NCBI GenBank assembly: GCA_038230415.1
Contig: JBBRNH010000052.1
Location: forward strand, 1 to 39,550
Origin: Cytophagales bacterium
Lineage (GTDB): Bacteria; Bacteroidota; Bacteroidia; Cytophagales; Spirosomataceae
Reading direction: 5' to 3'
DNA: 39,550 bases
Below are positions 1,253-19,181 of this stretch, one piece after another. The position numbers and the translations under genes were made by a program. The notes below the pieces were generated by a model that did no database searches, had not been told where the DNA came from, and saw only the letters and a program-made list of their open reading frames with translations. Numbering within the stretch: position 1 is the stretch's first letter; each line of letters opens with the position of its first letter.

Positions 1253-1300
1253 CTTTCAGGCAGCGCGGGCTACTAAATCGAGTTCGGCGTTCATGGCTGT

Positions 1301-1642: not shown

Positions 1643-1644
1643 CG

Positions 1645-1932
1645 TTACGGACGGTTACGGGTGATATAGGCCGGAACGTCCGAGTAATCGGGTTCGTCGT
1701 CTCCGTAGGCCCGGTTTAGGGCGGCATACGCCATAGATTGCCATTCGGCGCGTTCTTCCTCAATGGTGGCGGCAAATTCGTAGTCGGCGGGTTGGCCGGT
1801 TTGCTGTTTTATCAAGGCCAACAGCGTATTCACCAACGGGCTAACGGTGGGGTCGAGGTGGTCAAGATCAATAGTCAGTGTCAGCCCCCGGTAGGGTACG
1901 TTGGGCGTGTTGATAATGGTTATTCCGGTCAT
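1645..1932 (-). CDS. putative antitoxin partner of the PemK-like toxin (non-canonical, acidic C-terminus)
   Basis: 95-aa ORF directly upstream of the toxin, in the typical antitoxin-toxin order. It has an acidic C-terminal tail (GDDEPDYSD). There is no obvious MazE/AbrB or RHH motif. Confidence 0.45.
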   Translation of the reverse strand: MTGITIINTPNVPYRGLTLTIDLDHLDPTVSPLVNTLLALIKQQTGQPADYEFAATIEEERAEWQSMAYAALNRAYGDDEPDYSDVPAYITRNRP

Positions 1933-1994
1933 GGTCTTGGGGTTGGTTCTGTTTATGCGGCTAATCGTTGGTTCAACTGATTTTAGTCTCTGTC

Positions 1995-3377: not shown

Positions 3378-3426
3378 TGCCTTTTTGGTTTGGTCAGACC
3401 AAAGTTACAAACAATACCGATACGAG

Positions 3427-3450
3427 GGGACGGAATAGGGGACGGAATTA
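3427..3450. repeat. tandem 12-mer ggggacggaatW x2 between the integrase start and tRNA-Cys
   Basis: Direct reading of the sequence. Possible recombinase/arm-type or regulatory site. Confidence 0.4.
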
Positions 3451-3490
3451 CTTGATTTTACTTTATTTCTTTCGATAAAGTAGCGACAAC

Positions 3491-3530
3491 AAAAAACCGC
3501 TAACTCGTTGATAGTTAGCGGTTTTTGCTA
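3491..3530. terminator. bidirectional rho-independent terminator (9-bp stem ccgctaact/agttagcgg, loop cgttgat, flanked by an A-run and a T-run)
   Basis: The hairpin has T-tracts on both strands. On the minus strand it immediately follows the tRNA-Cys 3' end. Confidence 0.65.
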
Positions 3531-3560
3531 TTTTTCTTACCAAACTAAGGGGGTAAGTTG

Positions 3561-3631
3561 AGGTTTCGAGCGGATTCGAACCGCTGTAGCAGCTTTTGCA
3601 GAGCTGAGCCTAGCCACTCGGCCACGAAACC
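3561..3631 (-). tRNA. tRNA-Cys (anticodon GCA)
   Basis: Reverse complement: GGTTTCG-TG-GCCGAGTGGCTAGGC-T-CAGCT-CTGCAAA-AGCTG-CTAC-AGCGG-TTCGAAT-CCGCT-CGAAACC-T. The 7-bp acceptor stem, D-arm, anticodon loop with GCA, and GGTTCGAAT T-loop fold cleanly. The discriminator is U73, typical of tRNA-Cys. No CCA is encoded. Confidence 0.85.
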
Positions 3632-3760
3632 AGTTGATTCTGACGTTTCAATAAACGTGCCAAAACCGTTCCACAAAAGTAGCAGAAAACCGTTGGCTTT
3701 CGGCATACAGACCAAAAAAAGCCTCGAATCGTGAAATTCAGGGCTTTTACTGGTAATGCA

Positions 3761-3832
3761 TTTGTCATTCCGACGCAAGGAGGAATCCATCTGCTTGGCA
3801 ACATAGATTCCTCCTTGCGTCGGAATGACAAA
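3761..3832. repeat. perfect 27-bp inverted repeat (tttgtcattccgacgcaaggaggaatc / gattcctccttgcgtcggaatgacaaa) with an 18-nt loop
   Basis: Arms 3761..3787 and 3806..3832 are exact reverse complements. The element lies 24 bp downstream of the rpsA stop and is a REP/terminator-like element. A weaker hairpin plus T-run at about 3710..3750 also lies on the minus strand. Confidence 0.8.
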
Positions 3833-3855
3833 CAATCTTCACAATGAACAATCGC

Positions 3856-5640
3856 TTAGTTATTGCTCTCCATCTGCTCTTTCAACGCGGCCAGCGCATC
3901 GAGGTCGCCGAGGGTGGCACCGCGCTCCGGTTGATTTGAGGAAGCCGCAGCCGCTTTGGGCGCAGCCACTTTCTTTTCCTTCACCGGCTCGTTTTTATCC
4001 TGCCACGTTTTGCTGTGCGAAAGCATAATCCGCTTCTCATCTTTGGAGAACTCGGTCACTTTGAAATCGAGCGTTTCGCCCACTTCGCCGAAGGTTCCGT
4101 CCTCTTTCGTCAGATTTTTCAGCGTCGAGAAGCCTTCAATACCGTAAGGCAGTTCGAGCGTTGCCACTTTTTCGCCTTTGGTCAGAACCGTACAACGGTG
4201 AATCGTGCCGGGGCCGAAAACGTCCTCGAAGGTATCCCAGGGGTTTTCTTCGAGTTGCTTGTGGCCCAGAGCCAACCGGCGGTTTTCTACGTCGAGTTCC
4301 AGCACCACCACATCCATCTTCTCACCCACTTTGGTGAAATCTGACGGGTGTTTCACCTTCTTCGTCCACGACAGGTCAGACACGTGTACGAGTCCGTCAA
4401 TGCCTTCTTCGAGTTCGAGGAAAAGACCGAAGTTGGTCAGGTTACGCACCACACCCGAATGTTTGGTGCCGATAGCGTATTTCTCGCGCAGTTCGGGGCG
4501 CGTCCAGGGGTCTTCGGCAAGTTGCTTCACACCGAGCGACATTTTGCGGTCGTTGCGGTCAAGCGTCAGTACCATCGCGTCAATTTCGTCGCCCACTTTC
4601 AGGAACTCCTGCGGGTTACGGAGGTGCTGCGACCACGACATTTCTGATACGTGAATCAGCCCTTCTACGCCCGGCATGATTTCGAGGAACGCGCCGTAAT
4701 CGGCTACGTTCACAATCTTGCCTTTCACCCGCGAGCCAACCTGAATATCCTGCGAAAGAGCTTCCCACGGATGCGGCATCAACTGCTTCATACCGAGTGA
4801 GATACGTTTTTTCTCGCCGTCGAAATCCAGCACCACCACGTTCACGCGCTGATCGAGCGTGAGCACTTCGGATGGGTGACTGATGCGGCCCCACGAAATA
4901 TCGGTGATATGCAACAGCCCGTCAACGCCACCGAGGTCAATAAACACGCCGAAGTTGGTCATGTTCTTGATGATACCTTCCAGCACCTGCCCTTTTTCGA
5001 GGTTGTTCAGGATGAGGGTACGCTGCGCTTCGAGGTCTTTCTCGATCAGGACTTTGTGCGAGACAACCACGTTGTCGTTGGCATAATTGATCTTGACCAC
5101 TTTCACCTCCATTTTCTTGCCCACAAACACGTCGAAGTCCCGAATGGGCTTCACGTCAATTTGTGAACCCGGCAGGAAGGCTTCGATACTGTGAATATCA
5201 ACGATCAGGCCACCTTTGGTCCGGCGTTTCACAAAACCTTCGATCACGAGGTCTTCGTCGAGTGCCTTCTGAATCCGCTGCCAGGCCGTAATTACTTTTG
5301 CTTTCTTGCGCGAGAGAACCAACTGCCCATTCGGGTCTTCCTGGTTTTCGATATAGACTTCTACCTCATCGCCCATTTTCAGGTCGGGCAGGTCCCGGAA
5401 TTCAGATGATGGCACGATACCGTCTGATTTGAATCCGATGTTGAGGATAATTTCGCGGTCTGTAATCCCTACAACCACGCCCGTTACTACTTCTTTTTCG
5501 CCAACCTGCGACAGTGTGTCGTCGTAGAGTTGTTCCATCCGGCTGCGCTCGTCGGTCGAGTAGCCGTAGCCAAATCCTTTGTTGTCGGCCCGATCCCAAT
5601 CAAATTCGGGCATTACATCGCTTTGTTGCGTTTTGCTCAT
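3856..5640 (-). CDS. rpsA: 30S ribosomal protein S1
   Basis: Multiple tandem S1 RNA-binding domains with repeated ...G-x-V...GLLHISE.. motifs. The likely true start is the internal MSKTQQSDVMPEFDWD, with its ATG at 5638..5640. The ORF-track start at 5850 is an upstream extension. Confidence 0.93.
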   Translation of the reverse strand: MSKTQQSDVMPEFDWDRADNKGFGYGYSTDERSRMEQLYDDTLSQVGEKEVVTGVVVGITDREIILNIGFKSDGIVPSSEFRDLPDLKMGDEVEVYIENQEDPNGQLVLSRKKAKVITAWQRIQKALDEDLVIEGFVKRRTKGGLIVDIHSIEAFLPGSQIDVKPIRDFDVFVGKKMEVKVVKINYANDNVVVSHKVLIEKDLEAQRTLILNNLEKGQVLEGIIKNMTNFGVFIDLGGVDGLLHITDISWGRISHPSEVLTLDQRVNVVVLDFDGEKKRISLGMKQLMPHPWEALSQDIQVGSRVKGKIVNVADYGAFLEIMPGVEGLIHVSEMSWSQHLRNPQEFLKVGDEIDAMVLTLDRNDRKMSLGVKQLAEDPWTRPELREKYAIGTKHSGVVRNLTNFGLFLELEEGIDGLVHVSDLSWTKKVKHPSDFTKVGEKMDVVVLELDVENRRLALGHKQLEENPWDTFEDVFGPGTIHRCTVLTKGEKVATLELPYGIEGFSTLKNLTKEDGTFGEVGETLDFKVTEFSKDEKRIMLSHSKTWQDKNEPVKEKKVAAPKAAAASSNQPERGATLGDLDALAALKEQMESNN

Positions 5641-5725
5641 AAAAAAAGTTTCCTGACCCACTCCGTACATCGGCGCGTGGGTCAAGGGCGCACCGAAATT
5701 TGTGTAACATTTTGAAAATGGATTG

Positions 5726-5733
5726 CAAAGGTA
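5726..5733 (-). promoter_or_regulatory. candidate Bacteroidota-type -7 element (TACCTTTG = TAnnTTTG) about 90 nt upstream of the rpsA ATG
   Basis: Motif match on the minus strand. The long 5' leader is consistent with an autoregulated rpsA. Confidence 0.25.
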
Positions 5734-5859
5734 CGCAAACTTTTCAGGCAAAAAGTGGCTGATTGTCAAAAAGAAAGGGCCGACAATCACCGGCTTATCC
5801 ATCTCCTGATGAACCCGCCCGTGCCTGTCGGCCCTACCCGTGTATGTCAATGCACGGTT

Positions 5860-6375
5860 CTAATCGAATGCTTTTTCCCGTTTGGCTAAAAACGGCACCC
5901 AGCTTTGCTCCAACGCCCCCGAAAACTCGCGCAGAAACACCAGAAACGACGGTTTGAAGGGCCGTTGCCGGAGTTTGATGCCAGCCTCTTCGGGCGTGAA
6001 GTCACCTTTGCGGGCGTTGCAGCGTTTGCAGGCCGTGGCGAGGTTGTCCCAACTGGTTTTGCCCCCGCGTGATTTTGGCATCACGTGGTCGAGCGTGAGG
6101 TCTTCGGCAGTGCCGCAGTATTGGCACCGATGACCGTCGCGCTTGAAGATATTCTGCCGGGTAAGCATTACGCCCTTGTAGGGCAGGCTCACGTAGCGAT
6201 GAAGCCGGATAACGGTGGGCATCGGATAGTCGTTAGAGACAGTCCGAAGCCGAACGCCTTCCGACTCAGCCACGAGTTCGGCCTTATCGAGATAAACTAA
6301 CAAAAACGCTTTCGGAACGGAGCAGATGCTCAACGCACTATAATCTTGATTCAAGACTAAGACTTTCCTGCCCAT
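5860..6375 (-). CDS. HNH endonuclease family protein
   Basis: HNH signature: CQYCG...LTLDHVMPKSRGGKTSWDNLATACKRCNARK, with Cys pairs flanking H-N-H. It is co-oriented between smpB and rpsA. Confidence 0.8.
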   Translation of the reverse strand: MGRKVLVLNQDYSALSICSVPKAFLLVYLDKAELVAESEGVRLRTVSNDYPMPTVIRLHRYVSLPYKGVMLTRQNIFKRDGHRCQYCGTAEDLTLDHVMPKSRGGKTSWDNLATACKRCNARKGDFTPEEAGIKLRQRPFKPSFLVFLREFSGALEQSWVPFLAKREKAFD

Positions 6376-6454
6376 ATACGGTTAAAAATCCTCTGTTTGG
6401 TAGCAAGTTACACACGCCCGCGCAATTCAGCAAGTTTGTGGTTTTTGCGCCTAT

Positions 6455-6919
6455 TTACTCCGTGCTGCCGCGTTGCATTTCCCGCGTAGCATCGCGGTCT
6501 TTGATGCTGTCTCGCTTGTCGTAGAGTTTCTTGCCTTTTGCCAGCGCAATGTCGAGTTTGGCAAAGCCGCGTTCATTGGTGAAGAGCCGGACGGGAATGA
6601 TGGTCAGCCCCTGATCTTTGAGCTTTTCAGACAGTTTGCGGAGTTCGCGCTTGGTGAGGAGCAGTTTGCGGTCGCGGAGGGGGTCATGGTTGTTGTAGGT
6701 GCCTTCGGTGTAGGCCGAGATGCTCATCTGCCGCACAAACAGTTCGTCGTTTAGAAACAGGCAGTAGGCATCCTGCAAATTCACTTTCCCCTGCCGGATA
6801 GACTTGATTTCGGTGCCACTCAGGGCAATGCCGGCGGTGTAGGTTTCGAGAAAGGCGTACTCAAACGAGGCCCGGCGGTTGCGAATATCAACCTGCTTAA
6901 CAATGGTGGCTGTAGCCAT
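6455..6919 (-). CDS. smpB: SsrA-binding protein SmpB
   Basis: 154 aa. Conserved blocks IAQNRRA-like [19 protein letters not shown] and [11 protein letters not shown], plus a basic C-terminal tail. Confidence 0.93.
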
Positions 6920-7059
6920 ACAAATACCGGCTGGGGCTAAATTACCCGGCGCGTTGGCGGTAAACGAAAAAAAGATGCGGGTAGTTTGTTACTTCCGATA
7001 AAGTTCTCCTTCCTAATAGCAGAAAAAAAGCCGCCCCGACGGGCCGGTAATTTTGCGTC

Positions 7060-7335
7060 AGTCACAGCCTCAAGACCTTCACTTAAAAACCAGTTCCGCC
7101 GGAGCGATGTAAACCCGGCTCGTTATTCACAGAAACGGATTGCTGATTTTTTAGCAAAAAGTATGCCCAACCCACGCCAACGTAGAGAAAGCAGGGGAAA
7201 TGACCCAAAAAAGTGGGTAAACCGAGTAATTCATTAAGCACGACAGGAACAGGGTAATCTTACAGATGAAGCCGCAATATTCGTACCAACACAACGAGAC
7301 GACTCAGATCGAGTCGTCTCGTTGTGTTTTGGAGT
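7060..7335 (+). ncRNA. candidate small RNA (unknown family) ending at a strong intrinsic terminator
   Basis: A TAATTTTG (-7-like) motif lies at 7048..7055. A perfect 18-bp hairpin at 7288..7328 is followed by gttttggagtttt. There is no convincing ORF; the only one is 83 aa, basic and low-complexity, at 6986..7237. I found no tmRNA, RNase P or SRP signatures. Confidence 0.2.
7288..7335 (+). terminator. rho-independent terminator (18-bp perfect stem aacacaacgagacgactc / gagtcgtctcgttgtgtt, loop agatc, then T-rich tail)
   Basis: Direct reading. The T-run is on the plus strand only. Confidence 0.6.
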
Positions 7336-7349
7336 TTTATATCGCTTCA

Positions 7350-7462
7350 TTACCACCCCCAACCCCCTCCTAAAACAGGAGGGGGCTTTCAAAAACCCTT
7401 TGGCTTTTTGCTCCGAAGGCGTAGCCCCCTCCTGTTTTAGGAGGGGGTTGGGGTGGTAGTAA
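7350..7462. repeat. complex ~110-bp palindromic intergenic element (family copy A): C5/G5 hairpins flanking a ccttYgg...ccgaagg core
   Basis: ttaccacccccaaccccctcctaaaacaggagggggc ... gccccctcctgttttaggagggggttggggtggtagtaa. Compare with 13211..13317. Confidence 0.75.
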
Positions 7463-7470
7463 ATCTTAAC

Positions 7471-8076
7471 TTATTTCTTGGCAGGAACGGCCTGTTTTTC
7501 TTTGTACTCTTTGTTCAGCCCGTCTAAAATCTGCCGGGTGGCATCGTTCGACTGATCGGCGAAGAGGATACCCCCGCCTTTGGTGTAGCCCAGCACAAAC
7601 TCGTATTTGTTCTGCTTGTTGTATTTTTTGATGTAGTCACCAATCCGATCATACAGGTCGCCCATGGCTTTTTGTTGCTCACCGGCCAGCCGTTGCGTTG
7701 ATTGGTCGCGGTATTGCACCAGCGATTGCTGCTCCTGTTGCAGCGATGCCTCGGCGGCCCGGCCCTGCTCCTGCGTCATGGTCTGGGCGCGTTGCTGAAA
7801 ATACGTGGCTTTGTTTTGCAGGTTGCGCCCTTTTGATTCCAGGTCGTTCTGCAACTGAAACTGCTTGCTTTCCAACACTTTCTGCGTGTCTTTAAAGAAC
7901 TCGTATTTGGTCAGCAGCGAATCTACGTTCACGTAGGCAATCGGTTTTTTGGGGGCTTCGGCTTTTGTTACCACAGCAACAGTGGGTTCGGGCCGGTGAT
8001 CTTTCCAGTACAGAAAATATAGAATAGCTACGGCAATCGTCAGTACGACGTTGAAAATCAGGGAAGCGTTTTTCAC
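7471..8076 (-). CDS. OmpH/Skp-family periplasmic chaperone
   Basis: 201 aa. It has an N-terminal signal/TM segment. A Q/E/K-rich coiled-coil body and its size are typical of Bacteroidota OmpH. Confidence 0.65.
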   Translation of the reverse strand: MKNASLIFNVVLTIAVAILYFLYWKDHRPEPTVAVVTKAEAPKKPIAYVNVDSLLTKYEFFKDTQKVLESKQFQLQNDLESKGRNLQNKATYFQQRAQTMTQEQGRAAEASLQQEQQSLVQYRDQSTQRLAGEQQKAMGDLYDRIGDYIKKYNKQNKYEFVLGYTKGGGILFADQSNDATRQILDGLNKEYKEKQAVPAKK

Positions 8077-8129
8077 AAGAAAACGGAATTAAATGGTTTG
8101 TTACAGCCGACAAAGATAGCGGGTGATTG

Positions 8130-8483
8130 TTAGGAACGCGCCGATGGCATGATGACCTGCCGGGCATAAAACCCGGCTAACCCGGCCAAACCGCCGACCA
8201 ATCCTACCAAAAACGGAGCCAAGGCCAGCAACCACGCCGGGTTCGGAGTCTTGAACAGCACCGTACTCATAGTGTTGGTCATGCCCCCGCCGGTCGAGAA
8301 ATGGATGAACAGCGTGTAAACCAGCCATACGATAGCCACGCCCGCCGTGCCTTCGCCCAAGGCTTTGGCTGGATTGTTCGCCATGAAAAAACACACGCCA
8401 AATGCAACGGGCGCAACCACCCACCAGGGCAGAAAAAACTGGGCCAGGGCCGATAATACGGCGATAAGGAGGATTGATTTCAT
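8130..8483 (-). CDS. small integral membrane protein (4 predicted TM helices), function unknown
   Basis: 117 aa and strongly hydrophobic. It overlaps the stop of the upstream acylase gene by 4 bp. Confidence 0.5.
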   Translation of the reverse strand: MKSILLIAVLSALAQFFLPWWVVAPVAFGVCFFMANNPAKALGEGTAGVAIVWLVYTLFIHFSTGGGMTNTMSTVLFKTPNPAWLLALAPFLVGLVGGLAGLAGFYARQVIMPSARS

Positions 8484-11038
8484 TTTAGAATTAGCTTCCC
8501 CCGCAAACGGGGATGTTTATCGGTTAGGGTTTGCAAATAAATCAGTTCGTTGAGTTGGCCGGTGCGCCAGGTCTCGATCATGTTTTTGTATAACGGACTA
8601 CCCGGATTACCCGACTGCCCGCCCGGATACACGCCGTAGGCTTTGGGCATCGGCCCCAGTGCCACCACCATCCGCCACGATGGGCCGGTGGTTTCAGTGG
8701 TGGCATTCACGATGCCGGTGCCGCCACCCATGTCCACGTCCATCGCGCTGAAGGCATCCAAGCCCGGCACGAGGTGTTTGATGTCGGTGCTTTTGTGCGC
8801 GGCCCAGCCCCAGGTTTTGGCGTTCATCGGGCCGTGTTTTTTGGTGAGTGAATCCAAAGCCGATTTGAAACTTGCCGTCAGCACGTCGGGCAGGGTTTCT
8901 TTGGCGGGCGTTTTTACGTTGTCGAACCACTTGGCCGAGGGGTCGCGCTCGATGAGGGCCATCGTCCGGTCAAACGTCGGGAACTTCATCGGGATACTGT
9001 CGGCCACAAAAAATTCGTCTTTCCAGACCGCATCCATAAACTGCGCGTTCCATTCCACAAAAATCGTCGGGCCTACTTCGTTTACGTCGTTCTTTAGGTT
9101 CCAGCGTTTGAGGGTTTGCAAAGCGGCCTGTTGCGCAGGGTTCAGGGTTTGGGTTTGCAGGATTTTGAACAGTGTCGGCAGGGTTTCCGAAGCCCGCAGG
9201 TTAAAGTTGTCATTCTGGAGCATCCGCAGACTGTCAACCGTTGCCTTTTGCATAGTAGCAAGCCGTTGGTTAATCCGCCGACCGCGTTCTGAGGGTGCAA
9301 ACTGCCAGTTGAGGTAATACGGATAGGTCGGGTCAGTGGAAAACTGGTTGGCCGAACTCACAAAATTCAGGCCCGGATTTTTGACAATCGGGTTGTGGTC
9401 TGCCGGAATCCAGCCCTGCCAGTCGTGGGCGGGGTTGCTGCCATCGAGGGTAAACTTGCCCTGATCTTTCCACTTTAACGGGTAGCGGCCATTGGGCGAG
9501 ATGGCGATGTCTTTGTGCACATCGGCATACACGAAATTCTGCGCCGGAGCCGCGTAATAGGCCAACGCTTTGCGATAATCGGCGTAGTTACGGGCGCGGT
9601 TCAGAATCTGGTAGCATTTCACCTCGTTGGATGGGTCGTGGGCAATCCAGCGCACGGCGTGGCCCGTTGGGAAGTTGGCCCGGAAGGGTTTAGCCCCGGT
9701 ATTATAGGCCACCGGGCCGTGATGGGTGTACAATACGGTGTCCATCACGTCGGGCTTGCCTTTGACTTTTATCCGCTCAATGCGCCGGGTAACGGGCTTC
9801 CATTTGCCATCGTGCCAGTACTCGCGCCGGGCGTTGTCTTTGAAGGTAATCGCGTAGAAATCAAGCACATCGGCACCCACGTTGGTTACGCCCCAGGCAA
9901 TTTCTTTGTTAAACCCGATAATCACCCCCGGCGACCCCGGCAGCGACGCGCCACAGGCATTCATGGTGGGCGAAACGAGTTGAATCTGATACCAGATCGA
10001 GGGCAAACTCAGGGTTAAGTGCGGGTCGTTTGCCAGAATCGGGTAGCCGGTGGCGGATTTTTGCGGCCCAACGGCCCAGTTATTTGAGCCAATATCGGGG
10101 TTACGGGCCGGCCACGAATTACCCACCGTACTTAATCCTGACAGTAGCTTTTCAGGCTCCGGGTTTTTTCCTGCCGACTTTTCGGGCCAGCATTGCGTAG
10201 CGCGGGTGCTGGTCAGGGTGGGCGTTTTGCCGGTGGCCGGGGCTGATTGCGTGGCCGACGGGGTTTTCAGGGGCGTAAAATTCCAGGGCGTACCAGCCGG
10301 GATAATCGGGCTTTCGCGGACGGGATAATCCGGGAAGAGATCGGCGGTGATGGCGGGGCCGTATTTTTTCAGCACGTTTTCCATCCTGAAATCATCGGCT
10401 CCGGTTGCCAGCGTATTGCTCATCTGTTTCAGCAACAGGGCGCATTTGAGCGGTGTCCAGGCTTCGGGCGCATAGCCCAGCAATTTGTACTCGATTGGGT
10501 ATTGCGCTGGTTTTAAGCTACTTATCCAGGCATTAATCCCCGCGCAATAAGCCGTAACGATTTCGCGGGAAACCGGATCGGCGTTCATGGCTTTTTCGGC
10601 AACTTCGGCCCCGTAGCCCATGCCAAGCCGTCGGTTAAACTTGTCGAGTTCGATGGCCCGCTCACCAACCAGTTCAGATACGCGCCCGGCGGCTGCGTGG
10701 GTCTGAAACTCCATCTGCCAGAGCCGGTCTTTGGCCGTGACGTAGCCCTGCGCGAAATAAATATCATAGTCATTTTGGGCGAAAACGTGCGGCACTCCGA
10801 GGTCGTCATAGACAACGGTAACGGGTTGTCGGGTGCCACCGAGGGTAATTTCGCGGTCGGCGGTGGGCAGGGGCATTTCGGCGTTTTGCCAGAACCCGGT
10901 GAACGGACTCAGCAACGGCCCAAACGCCGGTACGTTGCCGAAGGGCCGGTTTAATGCCCAAAGGAGGGCGACCGTTGCGGCCAAAGAAAGTAGTGCGCGA
11001 ATGATTGGCATTGGGGATGTCAGGAATTTATACAGCAA
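8480..11038 (-). CDS. penicillin acylase-family Ntn hydrolase (peptidase S45; possible acyl-homoserine-lactone acylase)
   Basis: 852 aa. It has an N-terminal signal/TM segment. The internal ...GSNNWAVGPQKSATGYPILANDPHL... is the autoprocessing site that exposes the N-terminal Ser nucleophile of the beta-subunit. Confidence 0.85.
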   Translation of the reverse strand: MLYKFLTSPMPIIRALLSLAATVALLWALNRPFGNVPAFGPLLSPFTGFWQNAEMPLPTADREITLGGTRQPVTVVYDDLGVPHVFAQNDYDIYFAQGYVTAKDRLWQMEFQTHAAAGRVSELVGERAIELDKFNRRLGMGYGAEVAEKAMNADPVSREIVTAYCAGINAWISSLKPAQYPIEYKLLGYAPEAWTPLKCALLLKQMSNTLATGADDFRMENVLKKYGPAITADLFPDYPVRESPIIPAGTPWNFTPLKTPSATQSAPATGKTPTLTSTRATQCWPEKSAGKNPEPEKLLSGLSTVGNSWPARNPDIGSNNWAVGPQKSATGYPILANDPHLTLSLPSIWYQIQLVSPTMNACGASLPGSPGVIIGFNKEIAWGVTNVGADVLDFYAITFKDNARREYWHDGKWKPVTRRIERIKVKGKPDVMDTVLYTHHGPVAYNTGAKPFRANFPTGHAVRWIAHDPSNEVKCYQILNRARNYADYRKALAYYAAPAQNFVYADVHKDIAISPNGRYPLKWKDQGKFTLDGSNPAHDWQGWIPADHNPIVKNPGLNFVSSANQFSTDPTYPYYLNWQFAPSERGRRINQRLATMQKATVDSLRMLQNDNFNLRASETLPTLFKILQTQTLNPAQQAALQTLKRWNLKNDVNEVGPTIFVEWNAQFMDAVWKDEFFVADSIPMKFPTFDRTMALIERDPSAKWFDNVKTPAKETLPDVLTASFKSALDSLTKKHGPMNAKTWGWAAHKSTDIKHLVPGLDAFSAMDVDMGGGTGIVNATTETTGPSWRMVVALGPMPKAYGVYPGGQSGNPGSPLYKNMIETWRTGQLNELIYLQTLTDKHPRLRGKLILK

Positions 11039-11108
11039 AGAAAAACAGTCTTATTTTGATATGCCGTATAAATTTTTGAGAATTACCCGAATCAACAGAA
11101 TCTCCCGC

Positions 11109-13190
11109 ATGAAAAAACTGCTTTTACGAATCGCTATCGGCTGCATCACGCTGTCTGGCGTGTTTTCTACGGCCACTGCTCAGGTCAATCCGGCCCGCGT
11201 TACCATTGCCCGCGACCGTTGGGGCGTGCCACACATTTTTGCCGCCACCGACCCCGAAGTAGCCTACGGATTAGCCTGGGCGCACGCCGAGGACGATTTC
11301 AAAACCATCCAACTCACGCTTCTCGGCGGCAAAGGGATGTTGGGCCGACACCTCGGTAAGTCGGGTGCGGCCATAGATTACGTGGTCGGTTTGATTCGGG
11401 CGCGGGAACAGGCCACCCGCGATTACCCGGCCAAATTTTCGGCTGATTATTGCGCCCTGCTCGATGGCTACGTGCAGGGCATCAACGATTACGCCCGCGC
11501 TCACCCCGGCGAGGTGCTGGTGCGGCAGGCGTTTCCGGTGATGCCAACCGATGTGGTGGCCGGGTTTATTCTGTCGAGTGCGTCGTTTTCGGGCATTGAC
11601 CCAACCTTGCGGAGTATTTTGGGCGGAACCGTGCCAGCCGCGCCCGTACTGCCCGTTGGCGGCTCTAACGCATTGGCAATCAACAGCAAGCGCACGGCAG
11701 ACGGGCAAATCTACATCGCCATCAACTCGCATCAGCCGCTCGAAGGGCCGGTGGCCTGGTACGAAGCGCACCTGTGCAGCGAGCAGGGCTGGAATATTCT
11801 GGGCGGCCTGTTTCCGGGTGCGGCTACCATTTTGCACGGCTGCAACGAAAACCTTGCCTGGGCGCACACGGTGAATTATCACGATAAAATGGACGTATAT
11901 CAGTTGGCACTCAACCCGGCCAACCGGCGCGAATACAAAGTTGACGGCGCATGGCGGCAACTCGAAGTCCGCAGCGTGAAACTGCGCGTGAAAGGCATCC
12001 CGATTGCGATTCGCAAGAAAGCATATTGGAGCGATTTCGGCCCGACGGTTATCACCAAAACCGGAGCCTACGCCCTGCGCTGGAGCGGCCTGTTTGAATC
12101 GAGAGTGGGCGAGCAGTGGTACCGAATGAACAAAGCCCGGTCGTTCAGTGAATTTTACAAAGCAGTGCAGATGACGGCCATCGCGGGTGGGTTCAACATT
12201 GTGTATGCCGACCGGCGCGACACGATTTTTTACGTCACGAACGGCAAGATTCCGCTCCGTAACCCGGCCTTCGACTGGCGCGGCACCCTGCCCGGAAACA
12301 CGGCTAAAACGCTCTGGACGCAGTTTCACCCCATCGAAGACCTGCCGCAGGTGGTGAATCCGGCGAGTGGATACGTCTTCAACACCAACAACACGCCTTA
12401 CCACTGCACCGCCCCCGCCGATTGCCCGTCGCCCAACAAATTTGACCCGACGATAGGCATCGAGACCTTTGAGCTGAACCGTAGCAAACGAATGGGCGAG
12501 TTGATGGACGAGTCGCCGGGGCCGGTGAGTTATGACGATTTCAAACGGATAAAATACGACCTGCAACTGCCCCGGACGTTATCCTACCGGCTGGATGCCA
12601 ACCTGCTCCTGAACCTCAACCCGGCAACAGACACGGCGTTGGCCCCGCTGATAGTTCGGCTCAAAAACTGGAATCGCCGGGCCGATACCGCCAGCCGCGA
12701 TGCCGCCGTATTTCTGGTGGCCTACCGATTTCTGGCCGATCAACGCAGACAAAACGGCTCGGTAGCGGCCCTGACCACGGACGAATGTATGGCTGCGCTT
12801 CGGCACACCAACACCTACCTGACCACGCATTTTGGGAGTACTACTGTTTCGTTAGGAACCATGCAACGCCACCGGCGCGGAACGGTTGATCTGCCCATTG
12901 CGGGGATTCCTGATGTGCTGGCGGCAATGGATGATGTGCCGGTTGAGAACGGGCGGTTGCGGGCCAATCAGGGCGAATCGTACATCGAGTTGGTACGATT
13001 CAGAAAGGAGGGATTACCACTAATCGAGACGGTGAACGCCTACGGAGCCTCGAACCACGCCAACAGCCCGCACTACACCGACCAAATGCAACTATTTGTG
13101 AATCAGCAGACTAAGCAGATGACGCTGGACAAAGGGACGGTGCTGCGCGAAGCCGTGCGGACGTATCATCCGGGTATCGTTGGTCAGTAG
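11109..13190 (+). CDS. penicillin acylase-family Ntn hydrolase (second paralog)
   Basis: The likely start is MKKLLLRIAIGCITLSGVFSTATAQ, a signal peptide, at 11109. The ORF-track start at 10833 is an upstream extension. ...GGSNALAINSKRTADGQIYIAINSHQ... is the S45 Ser-nucleophile block. Confidence 0.85.
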   Translation: MKKLLLRIAIGCITLSGVFSTATAQVNPARVTIARDRWGVPHIFAATDPEVAYGLAWAHAEDDFKTIQLTLLGGKGMLGRHLGKSGAAIDYVVGLIRAREQATRDYPAKFSADYCALLDGYVQGINDYARAHPGEVLVRQAFPVMPTDVVAGFILSSASFSGIDPTLRSILGGTVPAAPVLPVGGSNALAINSKRTADGQIYIAINSHQPLEGPVAWYEAHLCSEQGWNILGGLFPGAATILHGCNENLAWAHTVNYHDKMDVYQLALNPANRREYKVDGAWRQLEVRSVKLRVKGIPIAIRKKAYWSDFGPTVITKTGAYALRWSGLFESRVGEQWYRMNKARSFSEFYKAVQMTAIAGGFNIVYADRRDTIFYVTNGKIPLRNPAFDWRGTLPGNTAKTLWTQFHPIEDLPQVVNPASGYVFNTNNTPYHCTAPADCPSPNKFDPTIGIETFELNRSKRMGELMDESPGPVSYDDFKRIKYDLQLPRTLSYRLDANLLLNLNPATDTALAPLIVRLKNWNRRADTASRDAAVFLVAYRFLADQRRQNGSVAALTTDECMAALRHTNTYLTTHFGSTTVSLGTMQRHRRGTVDLPIAGIPDVLAAMDDVPVENGRLRANQGESYIELVRFRKEGLPLIETVNAYGASNHANSPHYTDQMQLFVNQQTKQMTLDKGTVLREAVRTYHPGIVGQ

Positions 13191-13210
13191 TTATTTTTTA
13201 TTTCCTGAAC

Positions 13211-13317
13211 CGTCTCTTTACCCCCAGCCCCCTAAACAGGGGGCTTTTTAAAGCCTTCGGCTTTTGTTATCCCGAAGGTTTAGCCCCCTGCTTAGGGGGT
13301 TGGGGGTAAGGAGACGG
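13211..13317. repeat. complex palindromic intergenic element (family copy B), between convergent stop codons
   Basis: cgtctctttacccccagccccctaaacagggggc..agccttcggcttttg..cccgaagg..agccccctgcttagggggttgggggtaaggagacg. It has the same architecture as 7350..7462 at roughly 70-75% identity. Confidence 0.75.
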
Positions 13318-13334
13318 TTGGTAACTTTAACCAA

Positions 13335-13766
13335 TTATTTCACGCCTTTGCCAATGGCAACCAACTCGGCAGCGGGGTAAAAACCGATTACTTTTTTGAC
13401 CACTTTACCGTTGCCATCAATAAAAAACAGCGTTGGGTAGGCTTCCAGCGGGTATTGCTGGGTCAGGGCGGGGCCTTCGCCTTTTTCCATGTCCATCTTC
13501 ACGTTGATGAACTTCTGATTGAACACATCGCCCACTTCTTTCTGCGTAAACACCTCTTTCTGAAGGCGTTTGCAGGGGCCGCACCAACTGGCGTAGGCAT
13601 CGAGAAAGATGATTTTCTTCTCGGCTTTGGCCTTTTTCAGAATCTGCGCCCACTTGGCTTCGGTAAACTGAATGCCGACTTCGGCGGTTTTTGGGCCATC
13701 GGTGGCCTGCGTAGTGGCGGTTCCCCACAAGAGCAGGGCAACGAAAACGACTGTTAATTTTTTCAT
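13335..13766 (-). CDS. secreted thioredoxin-family protein
   Basis: WCGPCK active site. The likely start is MKKLTVVFVALLLWGTATTQA, a signal peptide, with its ATG at 13764..13766. Confidence 0.85.
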   Translation of the reverse strand: MKKLTVVFVALLLWGTATTQATDGPKTAEVGIQFTEAKWAQILKKAKAEKKIIFLDAYASWCGPCKRLQKEVFTQKEVGDVFNQKFINVKMDMEKGEGPALTQQYPLEAYPTLFFIDGNGKVVKKVIGFYPAAELVAIGKGVK

Positions 13767-13970
13767 GGTACGATTGGTGACTTGCCTTCTTAAACGATGG
13801 CATTGGCTGTTTTGGTTTCTACAGACGGTACTTTGCACAAAACGTGCCGATTTACCTTTACCAAACACATGAATATTACATCATATATTGAGTAATGGTT
13901 TTAGAGTGTTTTCATCTTTCCTTAAATTTTTGGTACTTTCGGGCATTCGTAACGGAAATCCAAGTCAACT

Positions 13971-14804
13971 ATGATAAAAAATAAATTAGTTAAGCCCTTT
14001 CTCAAATGGGCAGGTGGGAAAAGACAATTAATGGATGAAATTAGAAAATACGTTCCAAAGAACTTCACCACTTATTACGAACCATTTTTAGGTGGAGGTG
14101 CTGTCTTTTTAGAATTACAACCAAAACATTTCGTAGTAAATGACATCAACCCTGAGTTAATTAACGTTTATCAAACGACAAAAAATAATGTCGACCTACT
14201 TATTGCGACGCTCAAAACTTTTAAAAATGAGAGTGATTCTTATTATGAGATAAGAGAATTAGATCGATTTCCACTATTTAACACAATGTCAAACATTGAA
14301 AAAGCCGCAAGAATTATCTATCTAAATAAAACTTGCTTTAATGGATTGTTCAGAGTTAATAGTCAGGGGCAATTTAATGTACCATTTGGTAGTTACAAAA
14401 ATCCTGATATTATCAATGAAATAACATTAAGAGCAGTAAGTCGATACTTAAATGAAAACTCTGGTTCCTTCTTAAACGGAGATTTCGCAGATGCTGTTAA
14501 AGAAGCAAAAAAAGGATGCTTTATTTATCTTGATCCACCTTATGACCCTGTCTCTGATAGTTCTTCCTTCACGGGTTATACTTTAGATGGATTTGGAAAA
14601 AGACAACAAACCCGTCTTAAGGCAGTTTGTGACGATTTGGATAATCGTGGTTGTAAATTCCTTGTTTCTAACTCGTCAACAGATTTCATCAGAGATTTAT
14701 ACAGAGATTATAAGATAGAAAGAGTCCAGGCTACCAGAAGCATAAATTCTGTTGCAGCAGGTCGAGGCAAAGTTGATGAACTTTTAATTAGGAATTATGA
14801 GTAA
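13971..14804 (+). CDS. dam: DNA N6-adenine methyltransferase, Dam/DpnM class (D12 alpha-class; probable GATC specificity)
   Basis: The motifs LKWAGGKRQL, EPFLGGGAVF (FxGxG, AdoMet) and IYLDPPY (DPPY catalytic) are present. C-terminal ...TRSINS...GKVDELLI is as in Dam. The region is AT-rich, about 35% GC. Confidence 0.9.
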   Translation: MIKNKLVKPFLKWAGGKRQLMDEIRKYVPKNFTTYYEPFLGGGAVFLELQPKHFVVNDINPELINVYQTTKNNVDLLIATLKTFKNESDSYYEIRELDRFPLFNTMSNIEKAARIIYLNKTCFNGLFRVNSQGQFNVPFGSYKNPDIINEITLRAVSRYLNENSGSFLNGDFADAVKEAKKGCFIYLDPPYDPVSDSSSFTGYTLDGFGKRQQTRLKAVCDDLDNRGCKFLVSNSSTDFIRDLYRDYKIERVQATRSINSVAAGRGKVDELLIRNYE

Positions 14805-14816
14805 ATATCCAGAAAA

Positions 14817-16100
14817 ATGAAAACTAAAAACGATATTGCTTGGAATATACTCTTCGAAAAATACAGCATACTGCAGGCTATTGAAAATGAAGGAAAATTT
14901 ATAATATCCTCGGCTACCATCAATGTGATTAGAGAAAGTAGATTGATGACTAAGTTCGACAGTTTAGAAACGCTTCCTCACCTCTTTACCAAAAACCACC
15001 TTGCTATTTTACCAATAAGTAGGGGAGATTATATGATCGGAAAATTTGATGCCTACTACAAAGTAAATTCAGATGTTTATATCGAAGACGAATATGTTGC
15101 CTTTCCAGATTATCTCCAAAGTTTAGACTATAAAAAAATATATTCAGAAAGTGCAGCTATAAACTGCGCTTATGTAACGGGTATTTTAGCGCGATTCATG
15201 GACGATACGTCGCTTCTTCCTACCGTATCCGGCAGAATGGGATCTTCAAAATTTGATTTTTCAATAACTGGTAAGGGCGGGACATATAAAATAGCTGTAA
15301 ATAATAGCCAATGTGAAATTGATGGTGGCTATGAAGGTGAACAAGAGTTGCTCCTCATAGAAGCCAAAAATTTCAGTGTGGATGATTTCCTAATTAGGCA
15401 GATATATTATCCATTTCGGCTTTGGTCAAGTAAAATTACTAAGAGAGTAATACCAGTCTTTATGACATATAGTAATGACGGTTTTACATTGAGACAGTTT
15501 CAATTTCAAGATATATCTGATTACAATTCAATTATATTAATAAAGCAAAAGAGATATATTATTGCTGAAGAAGATGATTCAATTATTAAAGACAAAGATT
15601 TGCAACTCACCTTGAGCAATACTCAGGTTGTAGATGAGCAAGAAATTCCTTTCCCGCAAGCAGACAGTTTTAGCCGCGTAATTGATTTATTAAGTTTTCT
15701 TTCCGTATCGGATAAGAAGGATGAGGAGATAACAGAATACTTTGGCTTTGACCCCAGGCAAACTGGATACTACACTAACGCTGGAAAGTACTTAGAGTTA
15801 ATTGAGGGTGATTTTCGCAAGGGTTATCGGCTTACAAATCAAGGTAAGCGGATTGTTTCATTACCATATAAAAAGAAAACAGTTTCACTTGTTAGTTGTA
15901 TTCTCAAACACAAAGTTTTTAATGAAACATTAAAATATTATTTTAAAAATTCTCAACGCCCAGTTGATGATGAAGTAGTAAAATATATGAAAATGTTTGG
16001 TATCTATAACGTTCATGAAGATACCACTTACTACCGTCGTTCTAAAACTGTTCTGAAATGGATTGACTGGATAGTTTCACTTGCAGTTGCGGATGAATAA
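14817..16100 (+). CDS. putative restriction endonuclease / nuclease effector partner of the Dam-like MTase (PD-(D/E)xK-like core plus an uncharacterised C-terminal domain)
   Basis: 427 aa, starting 13 bp after the MTase. Candidate catalytic triad: D169 (CEIDGG), E182 and K184 (ELLLIEAK). It has the same low GC as the MTase. There are no signal or TM segments. Confidence 0.5.
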   Translation: MKTKNDIAWNILFEKYSILQAIENEGKFIISSATINVIRESRLMTKFDSLETLPHLFTKNHLAILPISRGDYMIGKFDAYYKVNSDVYIEDEYVAFPDYLQSLDYKKIYSESAAINCAYVTGILARFMDDTSLLPTVSGRMGSSKFDFSITGKGGTYKIAVNNSQCEIDGGYEGEQELLLIEAKNFSVDDFLIRQIYYPFRLWSSKITKRVIPVFMTYSNDGFTLRQFQFQDISDYNSIILIKQKRYIIAEEDDSIIKDKDLQLTLSNTQVVDEQEIPFPQADSFSRVIDLLSFLSVSDKKDEEITEYFGFDPRQTGYYTNAGKYLELIEGDFRKGYRLTNQGKRIVSLPYKKKTVSLVSCILKHKVFNETLKYYFKNSQRPVDDEVVKYMKMFGIYNVHEDTTYYRRSKTVLKWIDWIVSLAVADE

Positions 16101-16130
16101 GAGGGTATGATTCTCAACTCATCATATTAC

Positions 16131-19100
16131 TTACAATTTCTCCCGCAAAAACTCCGCCGTGTAACTCACGCCGTCGGGCAATTCAATCATGGCTTCGGGC
16201 GTGCCGGTGAAGGTGACGTAGCCGCCTTCGTCACCCCCTTCGCGGCCCAAGTCAATGATGTAGTCAGCGCATTTGATGACCTCTACGTTGTGTTCGATAA
16301 TAATCACCGAATCGCCCTGGTCAACCAGCGCGTTGATGGCTTTGAGCAGCACGCGGATGTCGTGGAAGTGCAGGCCGGTGGTCGGTTCGTCGAAGATAAA
16401 CAGCGTTTGGCCTTTATTTGGGTTGCCTTTGCCAAGGTACGACGCGAGCTTAACCCGTTGTGCCTCACCGCCCGACAGCGTGTTGGCCGATTGCCCCAGC
16501 CCGACGTAGCCCAGGCCGACTTCCTGCAAGGGCAGCAGTTTTTCGGCCATTTTGCGGTCGGCGATGGCGAAGAAATCAATGGCTTCGTCAACGGTCAGGG
16601 CCAGAATGTCGGAGACGTTTTTGCCGCCGAGCGTAACTTCCAGCGTTTCCTGCTTGAAACGTCGGCCCCCGCAGCCCTCGCATTTGAGGTAGATATCGGC
16701 CATAAACTGCATCTCGACTTTTACTTCGCCCTCGCCCTGGCAGATTTCGCAACGGCCACCGTCCACGTTAAACGAGAACTGACTCGGTTTGTAAGCCCTT
16801 GATTTCGAGAGCGGTTGCTCGCTCAGGGCTTGCCGCAGGTAGTCGTAGGCTTTGATGTAGGTAACGGGGTTTGAGCGGCTCGATTTACCAATCGGGTTTT
16901 GGTCAATCATTTCCACCGCAGCCACGCGCCCCACCGACCCGACGAGTTCAGAGAATTTACCGGCTTCTTCGCCGGGATTGCCTTTGAGCCGCGCCAGAGC
17001 CGGATACAGAATCTTTCTGACCAACGTACTCTTGCCCGACCCCGACACGCCGGTGATGACCGTGAGGGTGTTGAGGGGAAACTGCACGTCCACGTTTTTG
17101 AGGTTGTTTTCGTGTGCGCCCGTCACGCCAATCCAGTGCGTGGGTTTGCGCCGGAACGTCGGCACCGGAATCGTTTCGCGGCCCGTCAGAAAATCAAGCG
17201 TATGGCTTTTTAGTGATGAGTTAGACCGGGCTGGCGTTCCGGTGATGAGTGAAGAATATTCTTCTCTTGAGTATTCGTCACTCATCACCGGAACGCCGAC
17301 CTGGTCTAACTCATCATTGATTTTCCCCTGAAATACCAGTTTTCCGCCACCCAAACCGGCTTCGGGACCGATGTCAATGAGTTGGTCGGCGGCCCGCATC
17401 ACGTCTTCTTCGTGTTCAACCACAATCACGGTGTTACCCATGTCACGCAGAGATTCCAGCACACTGACCAACCGTTTGGTGTCTCGCGGATGCAGCCCAA
17501 TGCTCGGTTCATCCAAAATATACATCGAGCCGACAAGGGCCGAACCAAGCGAGGTAGCTAACTTAATTCGTTGATATTCACCACCCGACAGCGAGTTGGT
17601 GAGCCGATTCAGACTCAGATAGCCTAAGCCGACGCGCTCCATGTAGGCCAGCCGGTTGCGGATTTCGATCAGAATCCGGTCGGCGATTTTGCGTTTGTCG
17701 GCGGGCAGGTCAAGCGCATCAAAAAACCGAACCGCCGTTGAAATGGGCATCAGCACGAGGTCAGTGATCGAAACCCCGCCCACTTTCACGTAACCGGCAT
17801 CTTTCCGCAACCGCGAGCCGCGACAATCGGGACAGACGGTTTTGCCCCGATACCGCGACTGCATCACCCGGTATTGTACTTTGAAACTCTGGCTCTCGAC
17901 CCACTCAAAAAAACCGTTCAGGCCCGTAAAGTAGTCGTTGCCCGTCCAGAGAACGCTCTGTTCGGCGGGCGTAAGTTCTTTGTAGGGCCGGTGGATCGGG
18001 AAATCGAACCGGATACCGTTGCGAAGCAGTGGTTTCAGAAATTCGTCGCCCATTTTCTCACTCCGCCAGGGCATGATTGCGCCTTCAAAAACAGACAGGT
18101 TTTTGTCGGGAATCACCAGATCGGGGTCAATGCCGAGAACTTTGCCGAAGCCATCGCACCGGCGGCAGGCTCCGTAGGGGTTGTTGAAGGTAAACAGATT
18201 CACGCCCGGCTCTTCAAAGGTGATACCGTCCAGCTCGAATTTATCCGAGAAAACGCGGTCTTCATTCGGCACGTCGGCCCCGCGCACCAGCACCACCCGG
18301 CAGGTGCCGTTCCCCTCGCTGAAAGCCGTCTGCACCGAGTCAGAAAAGCGGTATTGGGTGTCTTCGTCGGGCTGCCCGGCATAATCGAACTGCACCGTTC
18401 CCCGGTCAATCAGTATTTCAAAAAGGGAGGAGAGGGAGAAAGGGGAAGAAGGAGACAAGGGGGAAGAAGGGAATGATCCAGCCCCTTTCCCCTTCTCCTC
18501 CCTTTTCTCCCTTTTGTCCCCTTCCTCCCCTTTCTCCCTTTCTAATTCTTCTTCAATCTCCCGCACCTCGCCCCCGGCAAGGATGCGGGTATAGCCTTTC
18601 TGAAGCAGGATTTTGAGTTCTACAGCCAGCGTGCGGCCTTCCTGAATCAGCAACGGGGCCAAAATCATGACGCGCTGATTGGCCCGGCTACCGAAAATAT
18701 AATTTACGACATCGGTAACGGTGTCTTTTTTGACAATACCACCCGACACCGGCGAGTACGTCACGCCCACCCGCGCAAAGAGCAGTTTGAGGTAATCATA
18801 AATTTCGGTGCTGGTGCCAACGGTGCTGCGCGGGTTGCGCGTGGAAACTTTCTGCTCGATGGCGATGGCGGGCGAAACACCTTTGATGTATTCGACATCG
18901 GGTTTTTCCATCCGGCCCAGAAACTGCCGGGCGTAGCTGCTCAGGCTCTCGACGTACATCCGCTGACCCTCGGCAAAGAGCGTATCAAACGCCAGCGATG
19001 ACTTTCCCGACCCCGATAAGCCACTGATTACGACTAACTTATTGCGCGGAATGGCAACATCTAAACTTTTGAGATTGTGAACATTAGCCCCCTTGATGAT

Positions 19101-19181
19101 GATATATTCTTTGGGGCTGAGCTGGTCAATTGTGCGAAGCGTTTCGATTTCGGCAGTCTGGTTCATGCAGTAGTTTGGCAA
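16131..19181 (-). CDS. uvrA: excinuclease ABC subunit A (UvrA), with two in-frame palindromic insertions
   Basis: It has two ABC ATPase modules with Walker A GVSGSGKSSL and GVSGSGKSTL. Cys-rich zinc modules CRRCDGFG and CPDCRGSRL are present. At 1016 aa it is about 80 aa longer than usual. Confidence 0.93.
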   Translation of the reverse strand: MPNYCMNQTAEIETLRTIDQLSPKEYIIIKGANVHNLKSLDVAIPRNKLVVISGLSGSGKSSLAFDTLFAEGQRMYVESLSSYARQFLGRMEKPDVEYIKGVSPAIAIEQKVSTRNPRSTVGTSTEIYDYLKLLFARVGVTYSPVSGGIVKKDTVTDVVNYIFGSRANQRVMILAPLLIQEGRTLAVELKILLQKGYTRILAGGEVREIEEELEREKGEEGDKREKREEKGKGAGSFPSSPLSPSSPFSLSSLFEILIDRGTVQFDYAGQPDEDTQYRFSDSVQTAFSEGNGTCRVVLVRGADVPNEDRVFSDKFELDGITFEEPGVNLFTFNNPYGACRRCDGFGKVLGIDPDLVIPDKNLSVFEGAIMPWRSEKMGDEFLKPLLRNGIRFDFPIHRPYKELTPAEQSVLWTGNDYFTGLNGFFEWVESQSFKVQYRVMQSRYRGKTVCPDCRGSRLRKDAGYVKVGGVSITDLVLMPISTAVRFFDALDLPADKRKIADRILIEIRNRLAYMERVGLGYLSLNRLTNSLSGGEYQRIKLATSLGSALVGSMYILDEPSIGLHPRDTKRLVSVLESLRDMGNTVIVVEHEEDVMRAADQLIDIGPEAGLGGGKLVFQGKINDELDQVGVPVMSDEYSREEYSSLITGTPARSNSSLKSHTLDFLTGRETIPVPTFRRKPTHWIGVTGAHENNLKNVDVQFPLNTLTVITGVSGSGKSTLVRKILYPALARLKGNPGEEAGKFSELVGSVGRVAAVEMIDQNPIGKSSRSNPVTYIKAYDYLRQALSEQPLSKSRAYKPSQFSFNVDGGRCEICQGEGEVKVEMQFMADIYLKCEGCGGRRFKQETLEVTLGGKNVSDILALTVDEAIDFFAIADRKMAEKLLPLQEVGLGYVGLGQSANTLSGGEAQRVKLASYLGKGNPNKGQTLFIFDEPTTGLHFHDIRVLLKAINALVDQGDSVIIIEHNVEVIKCADYIIDLGREGGDEGGYVTFTGTPEAMIELPDGVSYTAEFLREKL
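17214..17316. repeat. ~103-bp imperfect palindrome inside the uvrA coding sequence, in frame
   Basis: The right arm differs from the reverse complement of the left arm (tgatgagttagaccgggctggcgttccggtgatgagtgaagaatattc) at only a few positions. It encodes ..DELDQVGVPVMSDEYSREEYSSLITGTP... in UvrA. The opposite strand (ORF 16978..17331) encodes the near-identical DELDRAGVPVMSEEYSSLEYSSLITGTP. Confidence 0.8.
18419..18541. repeat. homopurine/homopyrimidine mirror-palindromic tract inside the uvrA coding sequence, in frame
   Basis: 54 nt are almost all purine (aaaaagggaggagagggagaaaggggaagaagg...). A short centre is followed by about 59 nt almost all pyrimidine, approximately the reverse complement. 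It encodes the low-complexity EIEEELEREKGEEGDKREKREEKGKG-AGS-FPSSPLSPSSPFSLSS. Confidence 0.75.

Follow-up and report, generated by a model that had tools for sequence, protein, structure and literature searches.

An AT-rich insertion between thioredoxin and uvrA genes of a Cytophagales bacterium carries a predicted GATC-type restriction-modification pair with a DUF6996-DUF6997-DUF7226 endonuclease

We analyzed a 39,550-nt stretch of DNA from a Cytophagales bacterium (the window), in which a gene for a D12-class DNA methyltransferase (MTase) and a gene for a predicted Type II restriction endonuclease (REase) lie on an AT-rich island between a thioredoxin-like gene and uvrA (Table 1). The two genes are separate, adjacent and on the same strand. 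The neighboring uvrA is convergent with the REase gene, and its stop codon, at 16131-16133, lies immediately against the end of the island. A preliminary description of this DNA had reported an abruptly bounded two-gene insertion of about 35% GC, in surroundings of about 57%, between a thioredoxin gene and uvrA. Pfam thioredoxin families and the uvrA ORF bear out the neighbors, and the measured values come close to those first given: the GC content of the island is 0.338 (33.8%), while that of 132 same-sized host windows is 0.546 +/- 0.022 (54.6%; minimum 0.49), which places the island at z = -9.7. The gap between the two genes had been put at 13 bp and is in fact 12 nt (14805-14816). Third codon positions follow the same division, with a GC3 of 0.25 in the MTase gene and 0.30 in the REase gene vs. 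0.63-0.70 in the thioredoxin-like gene, uvrA and an acylase-like gene. Within the 39.5-kb window, the island is the only AT-rich block of this kind.

Table 1. Features of the island and its immediate flanks, in window coordinates.
Feature	Position	Strand	Basis and remarks
Thioredoxin-like gene (host, left flank)	13335..13766	-	Pfam Thioredoxin_2, Thioredoxin_7, Thioredoxin; 92% aa identity to L005
Inserted AT-rich island	13851..16130	.	2,280 bp; GC content and junction alignment with the L005 empty site
Leader 5' of the MTase gene	13851..13970	+	Presumed to bear the promoter
D12/alpha-class (Dam/DpnM-like) N6-adenine DNA methyltransferase, 277 aa	13971..14804	+	Profiles, DpnM/EcoDam alignment; predicted target GATC
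MTase-REase spacer	14805..14816	+	12 nt, from MTase stop codon to REase ATG; operon-like arrangement
Type II restriction endonuclease (predicted), 427 aa, three domains	14817..16100	+	PADLOC REase_II PDLC03513; AF2 model
DUF6996, N-terminal domain, REase residues 6-74	14832..15038	+	PF22515, 1.8e-26; small, mostly helical
DUF6997, predicted PD-(D/E)xK-type catalytic domain, REase residues 75-248	15039..15560	+	PF22518
Predicted catalytic codons	15147..15368	+	E111 15147-15149; D169 15321-15323; E182 15360-15362; K184 15366-15368
DUF7226, REase residues 287-422	15675..16082	+	PF23871; MarR/ArsR-like winged helix-turn-helix, then helical bundle
uvrA (host, right flank)	16131..19181	-	ORF; 88% identical to its L005 counterpart at the aa level, full length

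With the thioredoxin-like protein as query and one genome per species, 80 Cytophagales/Spirosomataceae loci were retrieved. The closest of these, from a Cytophagales metagenome-assembled genome (MAG; locus L005), has the same gene order, with protein identities of 92% for the thioredoxin-like protein, 88% for UvrA and 91% for the acylase-like protein; its uvrA-trx spacing is about 93 bp, and both the MTase and the REase are absent. Nucleotide homology to L005 extends through the region upstream of the thioredoxin-like gene (13767-13850) to approximately position 13850 and resumes at approximately 16130, at the uvrA stop codon, and the 2,280 bp in between correspond to about 6 nt (AAATGC) in L005, a plain replacement at the junction. 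The empty site between trx and uvrA that had been proposed as a check is therefore present in the nearest relative. The bounds first given for the island (13870-16110) had the place right and were slightly narrow, as the alignment with L005 yields approximately 13851-16130. The island is an insertion between trx and uvrA, and its compositional contrast makes an insertion here far more likely than a deletion in L005. The remaining 79 of the 80 relatives are uninformative on the insertion site, since uvrA does not lie within 8 kb of trx in any of them. Searches of the island for a recombinase or mobility gene and for a tRNA-type boundary found neither, and mobile-element marks in the form of repeats pairing its two ends or a target-site duplication were absent; nothing found there marks the island as a transposon, an IS or an integrative element.

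The host flanks contain 56 GATC sites vs. 164.5 expected, a ratio of 0.34. Avoidance of GATC was considered as a possible sign of an active island and rejected, given a ratio of 0.31 at the empty-site locus L005 and of 0.2 to 1.1 at Spirosoma loci. Because L005 is equally low and the relatives vary, we attribute the depletion to variable clade background or lineage history.

The MTase matched the D12 class (PF02086) at 1.2e-70 and 238.6 bits (cut-off 22) and the Dam family (TIGR00571) at 309.3 bits (cut-off 114.85), and it was called MTase_II/oMTase by PADLOC. Against the enterobacterial Dam equivalog (NF008152) it scored 195.4 bits, under the cut-off of 441. Its best match among solved structures was DpnM (2dpm; 6.4e-81), to which it aligned end to end at 45% identity, and identity to Dam of Escherichia coli (EcoDam) was 37%. 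The initial assignment to the alpha-class Dam/DpnM enzymes by FxGxG and DPPY motifs was upheld, as DpnM is nearest and both motifs are present (F39/G41/G43 and D188-P189-P190-Y191), at positions that 74-75 of the 75 partner MTases share. In EcoDam, R124 serves to discriminate the G:C pair, Y119 is the intercalating residue and N120 forms a hydrogen bond with a base; contacts to the adjacent pair come from L122 and P134, and the first pair is read by K9 and Y138 (PMC4417163). The equivalents of EcoDam K9/Y119/N120/L122/R124/P134/Y138 in the MTase are K12/F123/N124/L126/R128/P138/Y142, with F123, at the position of Y119, being aromatic as in DpnM. Across the 75 MTases that adjoin homologs of the 427-aa protein, these GATC-reading positions are invariant or nearly so. 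Since the residues that read GATC are conserved, GATC is the predicted site of the MTase and of its whole group of partner MTases, and the prediction is well supported at the level of sequence.

The association of this type of MTase with the REase family is tight. When the loci of a Clostridium, a Saprospiraceae MAG and a Methanophagales archaeon are added to 80 metagenome loci, 71 have at least 900 bp of upstream sequence, and in all 71 the REase homolog is directly preceded by a D12 MTase, with a gap of -4 to +59 nt; in the three added genomes, too, the D12 methylase is found just 5' of the homolog. Plasmid-borne copies of the REase, at 36-46% identity, are likewise paired with a 'DNA adenine methylase,' and in Staphylococcus the genes for the MTase and the REase homolog are divergent. 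A 724-aa metagenomic protein consists of a D12 methylase fused to all three endonuclease domains; it is known from one gene call, and the fusion may be artefactual. Six of 44 relative loci contain a second methylase, of family PF01555; no such second (DpnA-like, PF01555 or ssDNA) methylase occurs in the island, which has two genes only, or elsewhere in the window.

The REase was matched over residues 5-421 by the 426-position PADLOC profile REase_II (PDLC03513), a REBASE-derived Type II REase profile, at 4.6e-111. It consists of three domains known to Pfam as DUF6996, DUF6997 and DUF7226, all over the gathering cut-off. The half of the protein that had earlier been set aside as uncharacterized corresponds to the small N-terminal domain and the winged-helix domain and is a constant part of the REase family. 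This family is large, with 3,785 matches among 90%-identity clusters, and clustering at 50% identity leaves 1,411 groups. It ranges over Bacillota, Bacteroidota, cyanobacteria, archaea and plasmids; the REase shares only about 50% identity with its nearest relatives, which come from Clostridia, Bacteroidota, archaea and plasmids. Nearly all full-length members measure 415-460 aa, and the three-domain layout is therefore fixed. The pair had been likened to the MboI/DpnII/Sau3AI systems, which holds for the MTase and for the predicted site and fails for the REase: besides the three DUFs, a Pfam scan at E<=1 returned a single weak match, to an unrelated family, and neither DpnII/MboI nor MutH/Sau3AI appeared. 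No NCBIfam model matched the 427-aa protein, and a PDB search with its single sequence gave no match; PDB profile matches to designed Kelch repeats were rejected as spurious, having arisen through a GGY-G string. Judged by these family searches, the REase is best placed in a separate DUF6996-DUF6997-DUF7226 family outside both DpnII/MboI and Sau3AI/MutH. A literature search with the DUF and PF identifiers found no published study of the family, a search for sequenced GATC isoschizomers (BfuCI, BstKTI, Kzo9I and others) yielded nothing of use, and a C. coli methylome paper contained no description of it.

Residues E111, N163, Q165, E167, D169, G171, E173, E182, A183, K184, and N185 of the REase are invariant in all 41 aligned homologs. 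The D...ExK core that had been proposed for the partner of the MTase, D169...E182-A-K184, falls in these columns and is confirmed as a conserved motif. In an AF2 model of the 427-aa protein (mean pLDDT 91.7; 87.4 for residues 1-275 modeled alone), E111 opens the helix 111-120, and D169 and E182-x-K184 lie on the consecutive strands 165-173 and 177-184, a placement that, as modeled, agrees with the usual PD-(D/E)xK layout. The central domain resembles solved nucleases with modest scores, and none of them is a close relative; a Foldseek search of the PDB gave nothing at E <= 0.001, the best match being a Cas4-family protein at 0.014. Given a consistent list of structural hits together with the invariant motif, the model supports a PD-(D/E)xK-type fold for the central domain. 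Alignment and model further place the invariant residues R314, Q315, Y318, and Y319 in the winged-helix unit, on its third helix, after which comes a beta-hairpin, and this arrangement would fit a conserved DNA-reading surface.

The insertion, the family memberships, the conservation of motifs, the folds seen in the model (nuclease-type, winged-helix) and the linkage of MTase to REase are direct results of the analysis. We consider it probable that the island in the uvrA-trx spacer was acquired horizontally and represents an orthodox Type II restriction-modification (R-M) system of two genes with GATC as its predicted site. A GATC-type R-M system of horizontal origin had already been favored in the preliminary description, and the empty site, the GATC-reading residues, the REase profile, the modeled PD-(D/E)xK-type fold with its invariant motif and the pairing with a D12 MTase all argue for it. 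In the mechanism that we propose, the GATC specificity of the two enzymes, cleavage and its sensitivity to methylation, regulation and the roles of the accessory domains are predictions. The MTase, with SAM, would methylate N6 of the GATC adenine on both strands of host DNA, and the REase, as a Mg2+-dependent PD-(D/E)xK endonuclease acting through E111, D169, E182, and K184, would cut incoming DNA at unmethylated GATC. The C-terminal winged helix, and possibly the small N-terminal domain as well, may add DNA binding or site recognition. The M gene precedes the R gene across a 12-nt spacer in an operon that has no controller protein, an order that would allow the methylase to be made first.

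A more far-reaching possibility, which we put forward tentatively and consider doubtful on present evidence, is that the DUF6996-DUF6997-DUF7226 enzymes form a lineage of GATC endonucleases of their own, structurally distinct and third beside DpnII/MboI and the Sau3AI/MutH-like enzymes, for which no biochemical or structural study is known, and that the recognition helix of the winged-helix domain (R314, Q315, Y318, Y319) largely sets the site. The REase would then mirror DpnI, with unmethylated GATC as the sequence it reads. The winged-helix domain might in addition act as the repressor of the operon, in which case the absence of a controller protein would be accounted for.

Three alternatives to an orthodox GATC system were weighed. 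The first is a genuine Type II pair whose site is not plain GATC. The site might be a longer one that includes GATC (e.g., TGATCA), or the REase might require two sites or cleave at some distance, the winged helix being a recognition or effector module of its own. The modular build of the enzyme, a nuclease plus a winged helix-turn-helix, is compatible with this, the site of the REase is a prediction, and Dam-family membership alone does not fix specificity. We nevertheless regard this alternative as unlikely, since the MTase aligns with DpnM end to end with no extra domain, the GATC-reading residues of EcoDam are conserved family-wide, and a PF01555 MTase accompanies some homologs, as in the GATC-specific DpnII cassette.

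Less likely again, and by our estimate very improbable, is a pair, perhaps silent or decaying, that raises no working restriction barrier, in which an inactive or silent REase stands beside a solitary Dam-like methylase or the two genes serve mainly as a selfish addiction module. The leader is where this reading finds some footing, as neither a clear promoter nor a controller protein was found. A promoter search of 13851-13970 gave no sigma-70-like site, the Bacteroidota -7 element was absent as an exact copy (TAnnTTTG was matched only with one mismatch, at 13923-13941), and no plus-strand ORF of at least 30 aa that could encode a controller (C) protein lies wholly inside the 120-nt leader or in the 12-nt spacer. 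Moreover, the product in the public annotation (P0001) is truncated at 355 aa and is without PF22515, the N-terminal DUF6996, and the composition of the island is unadjusted towards that of the host, leaving little time for selection. Both ORFs are full length, however, with all invariant family residues intact, including the catalytic tetrad, and the 427-aa start finds support in the DUF6996 match, which covers residues 6-74, and in homologs whose alignment begins at residue 2-5.

Finally, it is scarcely credible that the 427-aa protein is no restriction nuclease and acts instead as a winged-helix regulator or as another modification-controlled effector beside an orphan Dam methylase: the MarR-like C-terminal domain, the modest nuclease similarity of the central domain and the database names of homologs (often 'transcriptional regulator,' which the winged helix-turn-helix tail explains; others, 'translation elongation factor' among them, are clearly mistaken) lend themselves to this reading, whereas the full-length REase_II match, the invariant E/D/ExK motif on the expected helix and consecutive strands, the D12 MTase linkage in 71/71 loci and the existence of the fusion protein weigh against it, and the effector that had been kept in reserve as an explanation is unsupported, REase_II being the sole PADLOC defence match.

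As a predicted GATC R-M system, the island explains the sharp compositional anomaly of this genome. It also predicts that the DNA of the strain is Gm6ATC-methylated, which would matter for transformation, cloning and the interpretation of methylomes. That the pair is a Type II R-M system will not surprise specialists, as standard defence-system profiles already recognize it. The family of the REase is large and tied to Dam-like methylases, yet it is represented by three Pfam DUFs, has no solved structure and is unreliably annotated in public databases. One characterized member would correct many annotations and could provide a new GATC enzyme.

Among known systems, E. coli Dam resembles the MTase in its D12 class, in 37% identity and in the DPPY motif, and its GATC-contact residues are matched, with F123 in place of Y119. 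Unlike Dam, which is solitary, the MTase described here is paired with an endonuclease, as it always is in the homolog loci, and with 195 vs. 441 bits for NF008152 it is not an ortholog of Dam. Sau3AI and LlaKR2I (MutH-like) share with the REase the predicted GATC target and a protein larger than MboI or DpnII, but show no sequence-family match to it. The Sau3AI and LlaKR2I systems use m5C methylases, whereas the methylase here is of the D12 class and predicted to form m6A. The combination of a nuclease with a winged helix occurs in SdaI, FokI, and DpnI. These enzymes resemble the REase at the level of the fold only (7-10% identity), and differ from it in domain sizes and in the extra N-terminal DUF6996 of the REase. 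DpnI, which lacks a partner methylase, cleaves GATC only when it is methylated (PMC3573125). Because the REase gene is always linked to that of a Dam-like MTase, a DpnI-like action is incompatible with it.

The DpnII system of Streptococcus pneumoniae (dpnM-dpnA-dpnB; also LlaDCHI, MboI-type) is similar in that the MTase is nearest to DpnM, the predicted modification is m6A in GATC and the M gene precedes the R gene. DpnII itself is about 288 aa long; the REase, built of DUF6996-DUF6997-DUF7226, is approximately 140 aa longer and has a winged-helix tail. The roles of the genes of the DpnII system have been described, DpnM being the methylase of double-stranded GATC (PMC3573125). Its cassette also differs in having a second (ssDNA) methylase, which is lacking in the window. 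The extra MTase of some relatives, of family PF01555, the class of DpnA, echoes the dpnM-dpnA-dpnB cassette.

The public call of the island endonuclease (protein P0001) comprises 355 aa rather than the 427 aa of the complete ORF, and it lacks DUF6996. From the difference in length, the start of P0001 would be the internal Met73 of the longer ORF. The exact 277-aa sequence of the island methylase had no entry in the protein collection searched; this gene may have been called publicly from another start, or left uncalled. Naming of the endonuclease homologs was also inconsistent. Labels among the homologs P0024, P0034 and P0075 and those of two plasmid loci, one from Leuconostoc (L165) and one from Staphylococcus (L166), included 'transcriptional regulator', 'ArsR family', 'AAA-associated domain-containing protein', 'translation elongation factor', 'hypothetical protein' and 'type II restriction enzyme'. 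Misannotation of this large endonuclease family therefore looks systematic.

In host DNA (window positions 1-13850 and 16131-39550), CTAG is nearly absent, with one occurrence observed vs. 38.6 expected, and AGCT and GATC are likewise depleted (0.42 and 0.34, respectively). The closest relative, a Cytophagales MAG with an empty island site (L005), resembles the host in this pattern, with no CTAG vs. 5.2 expected. Values at related Spirosomataceae loci (L006-L061) are widely spread, from 0.19 to 1.46 for GATC and from 0 to 0.86 for CTAG, which suggests that past restriction pressure, or else a bias in repair, has differed from lineage to lineage. Among host genes near the island, uvrA encodes a long protein with two low-complexity inserts (residues about 211-255 and 627-660), one of them Glu/Lys-rich and then Ser/Pro-rich, the second a variable stretch. 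Both are sharply unlike those of L005 despite 88% overall identity, and they look like fast-evolving linkers. Two large divergent ORFs also lie in the window, and on the basis of recognised motifs such as GSNNWAV we take both to resemble the penicillin-acylase/Ntn-hydrolase family.

Coordinates of features in the window and at compared loci
Locus	Feature	Position	Strand	Length
Window	Large divergent ORF	8480-11038	-	852 aa
Window	Large divergent ORF	about 10833-13190	+	up to 785 aa
Window	D12 methylase	13971-14804	+	277 aa
Window	Endonuclease	14817-16100	+	427 aa
Window	UvrA	16131-19181		1016 aa
L001	PF01555 methylase	3607-4137		
L002	PF01555 methylase	2864-4090		
L004	Interrupted pair	2700-5777		

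In a metagenomic protein of 724 aa (P0176), one polypeptide begins with a D12 methylase (residues 11-259) and continues through DUF6996, DUF6997 and DUF7226. This protein represents either a genuine fusion of M and R, as a Type IIC-like variant, or an artefact of gene calling or assembly at overlapping genes. A gene for a 244-aa protein of metallo-beta-lactamase fold separates the D12 methylase and endonuclease genes in a Saprospiraceae MAG (L004), the only interrupted pair among the loci seen. A PF01555 (N6/N4) methylase adjoins the pair at 6 of 44 loci (L001, L002, L087, L091, L120, and L161), lying downstream of the REase gene at L120 and L161 and, at L120, on the opposite strand. With this added methylase, these six loci form a three-gene cassette like that of DpnII.
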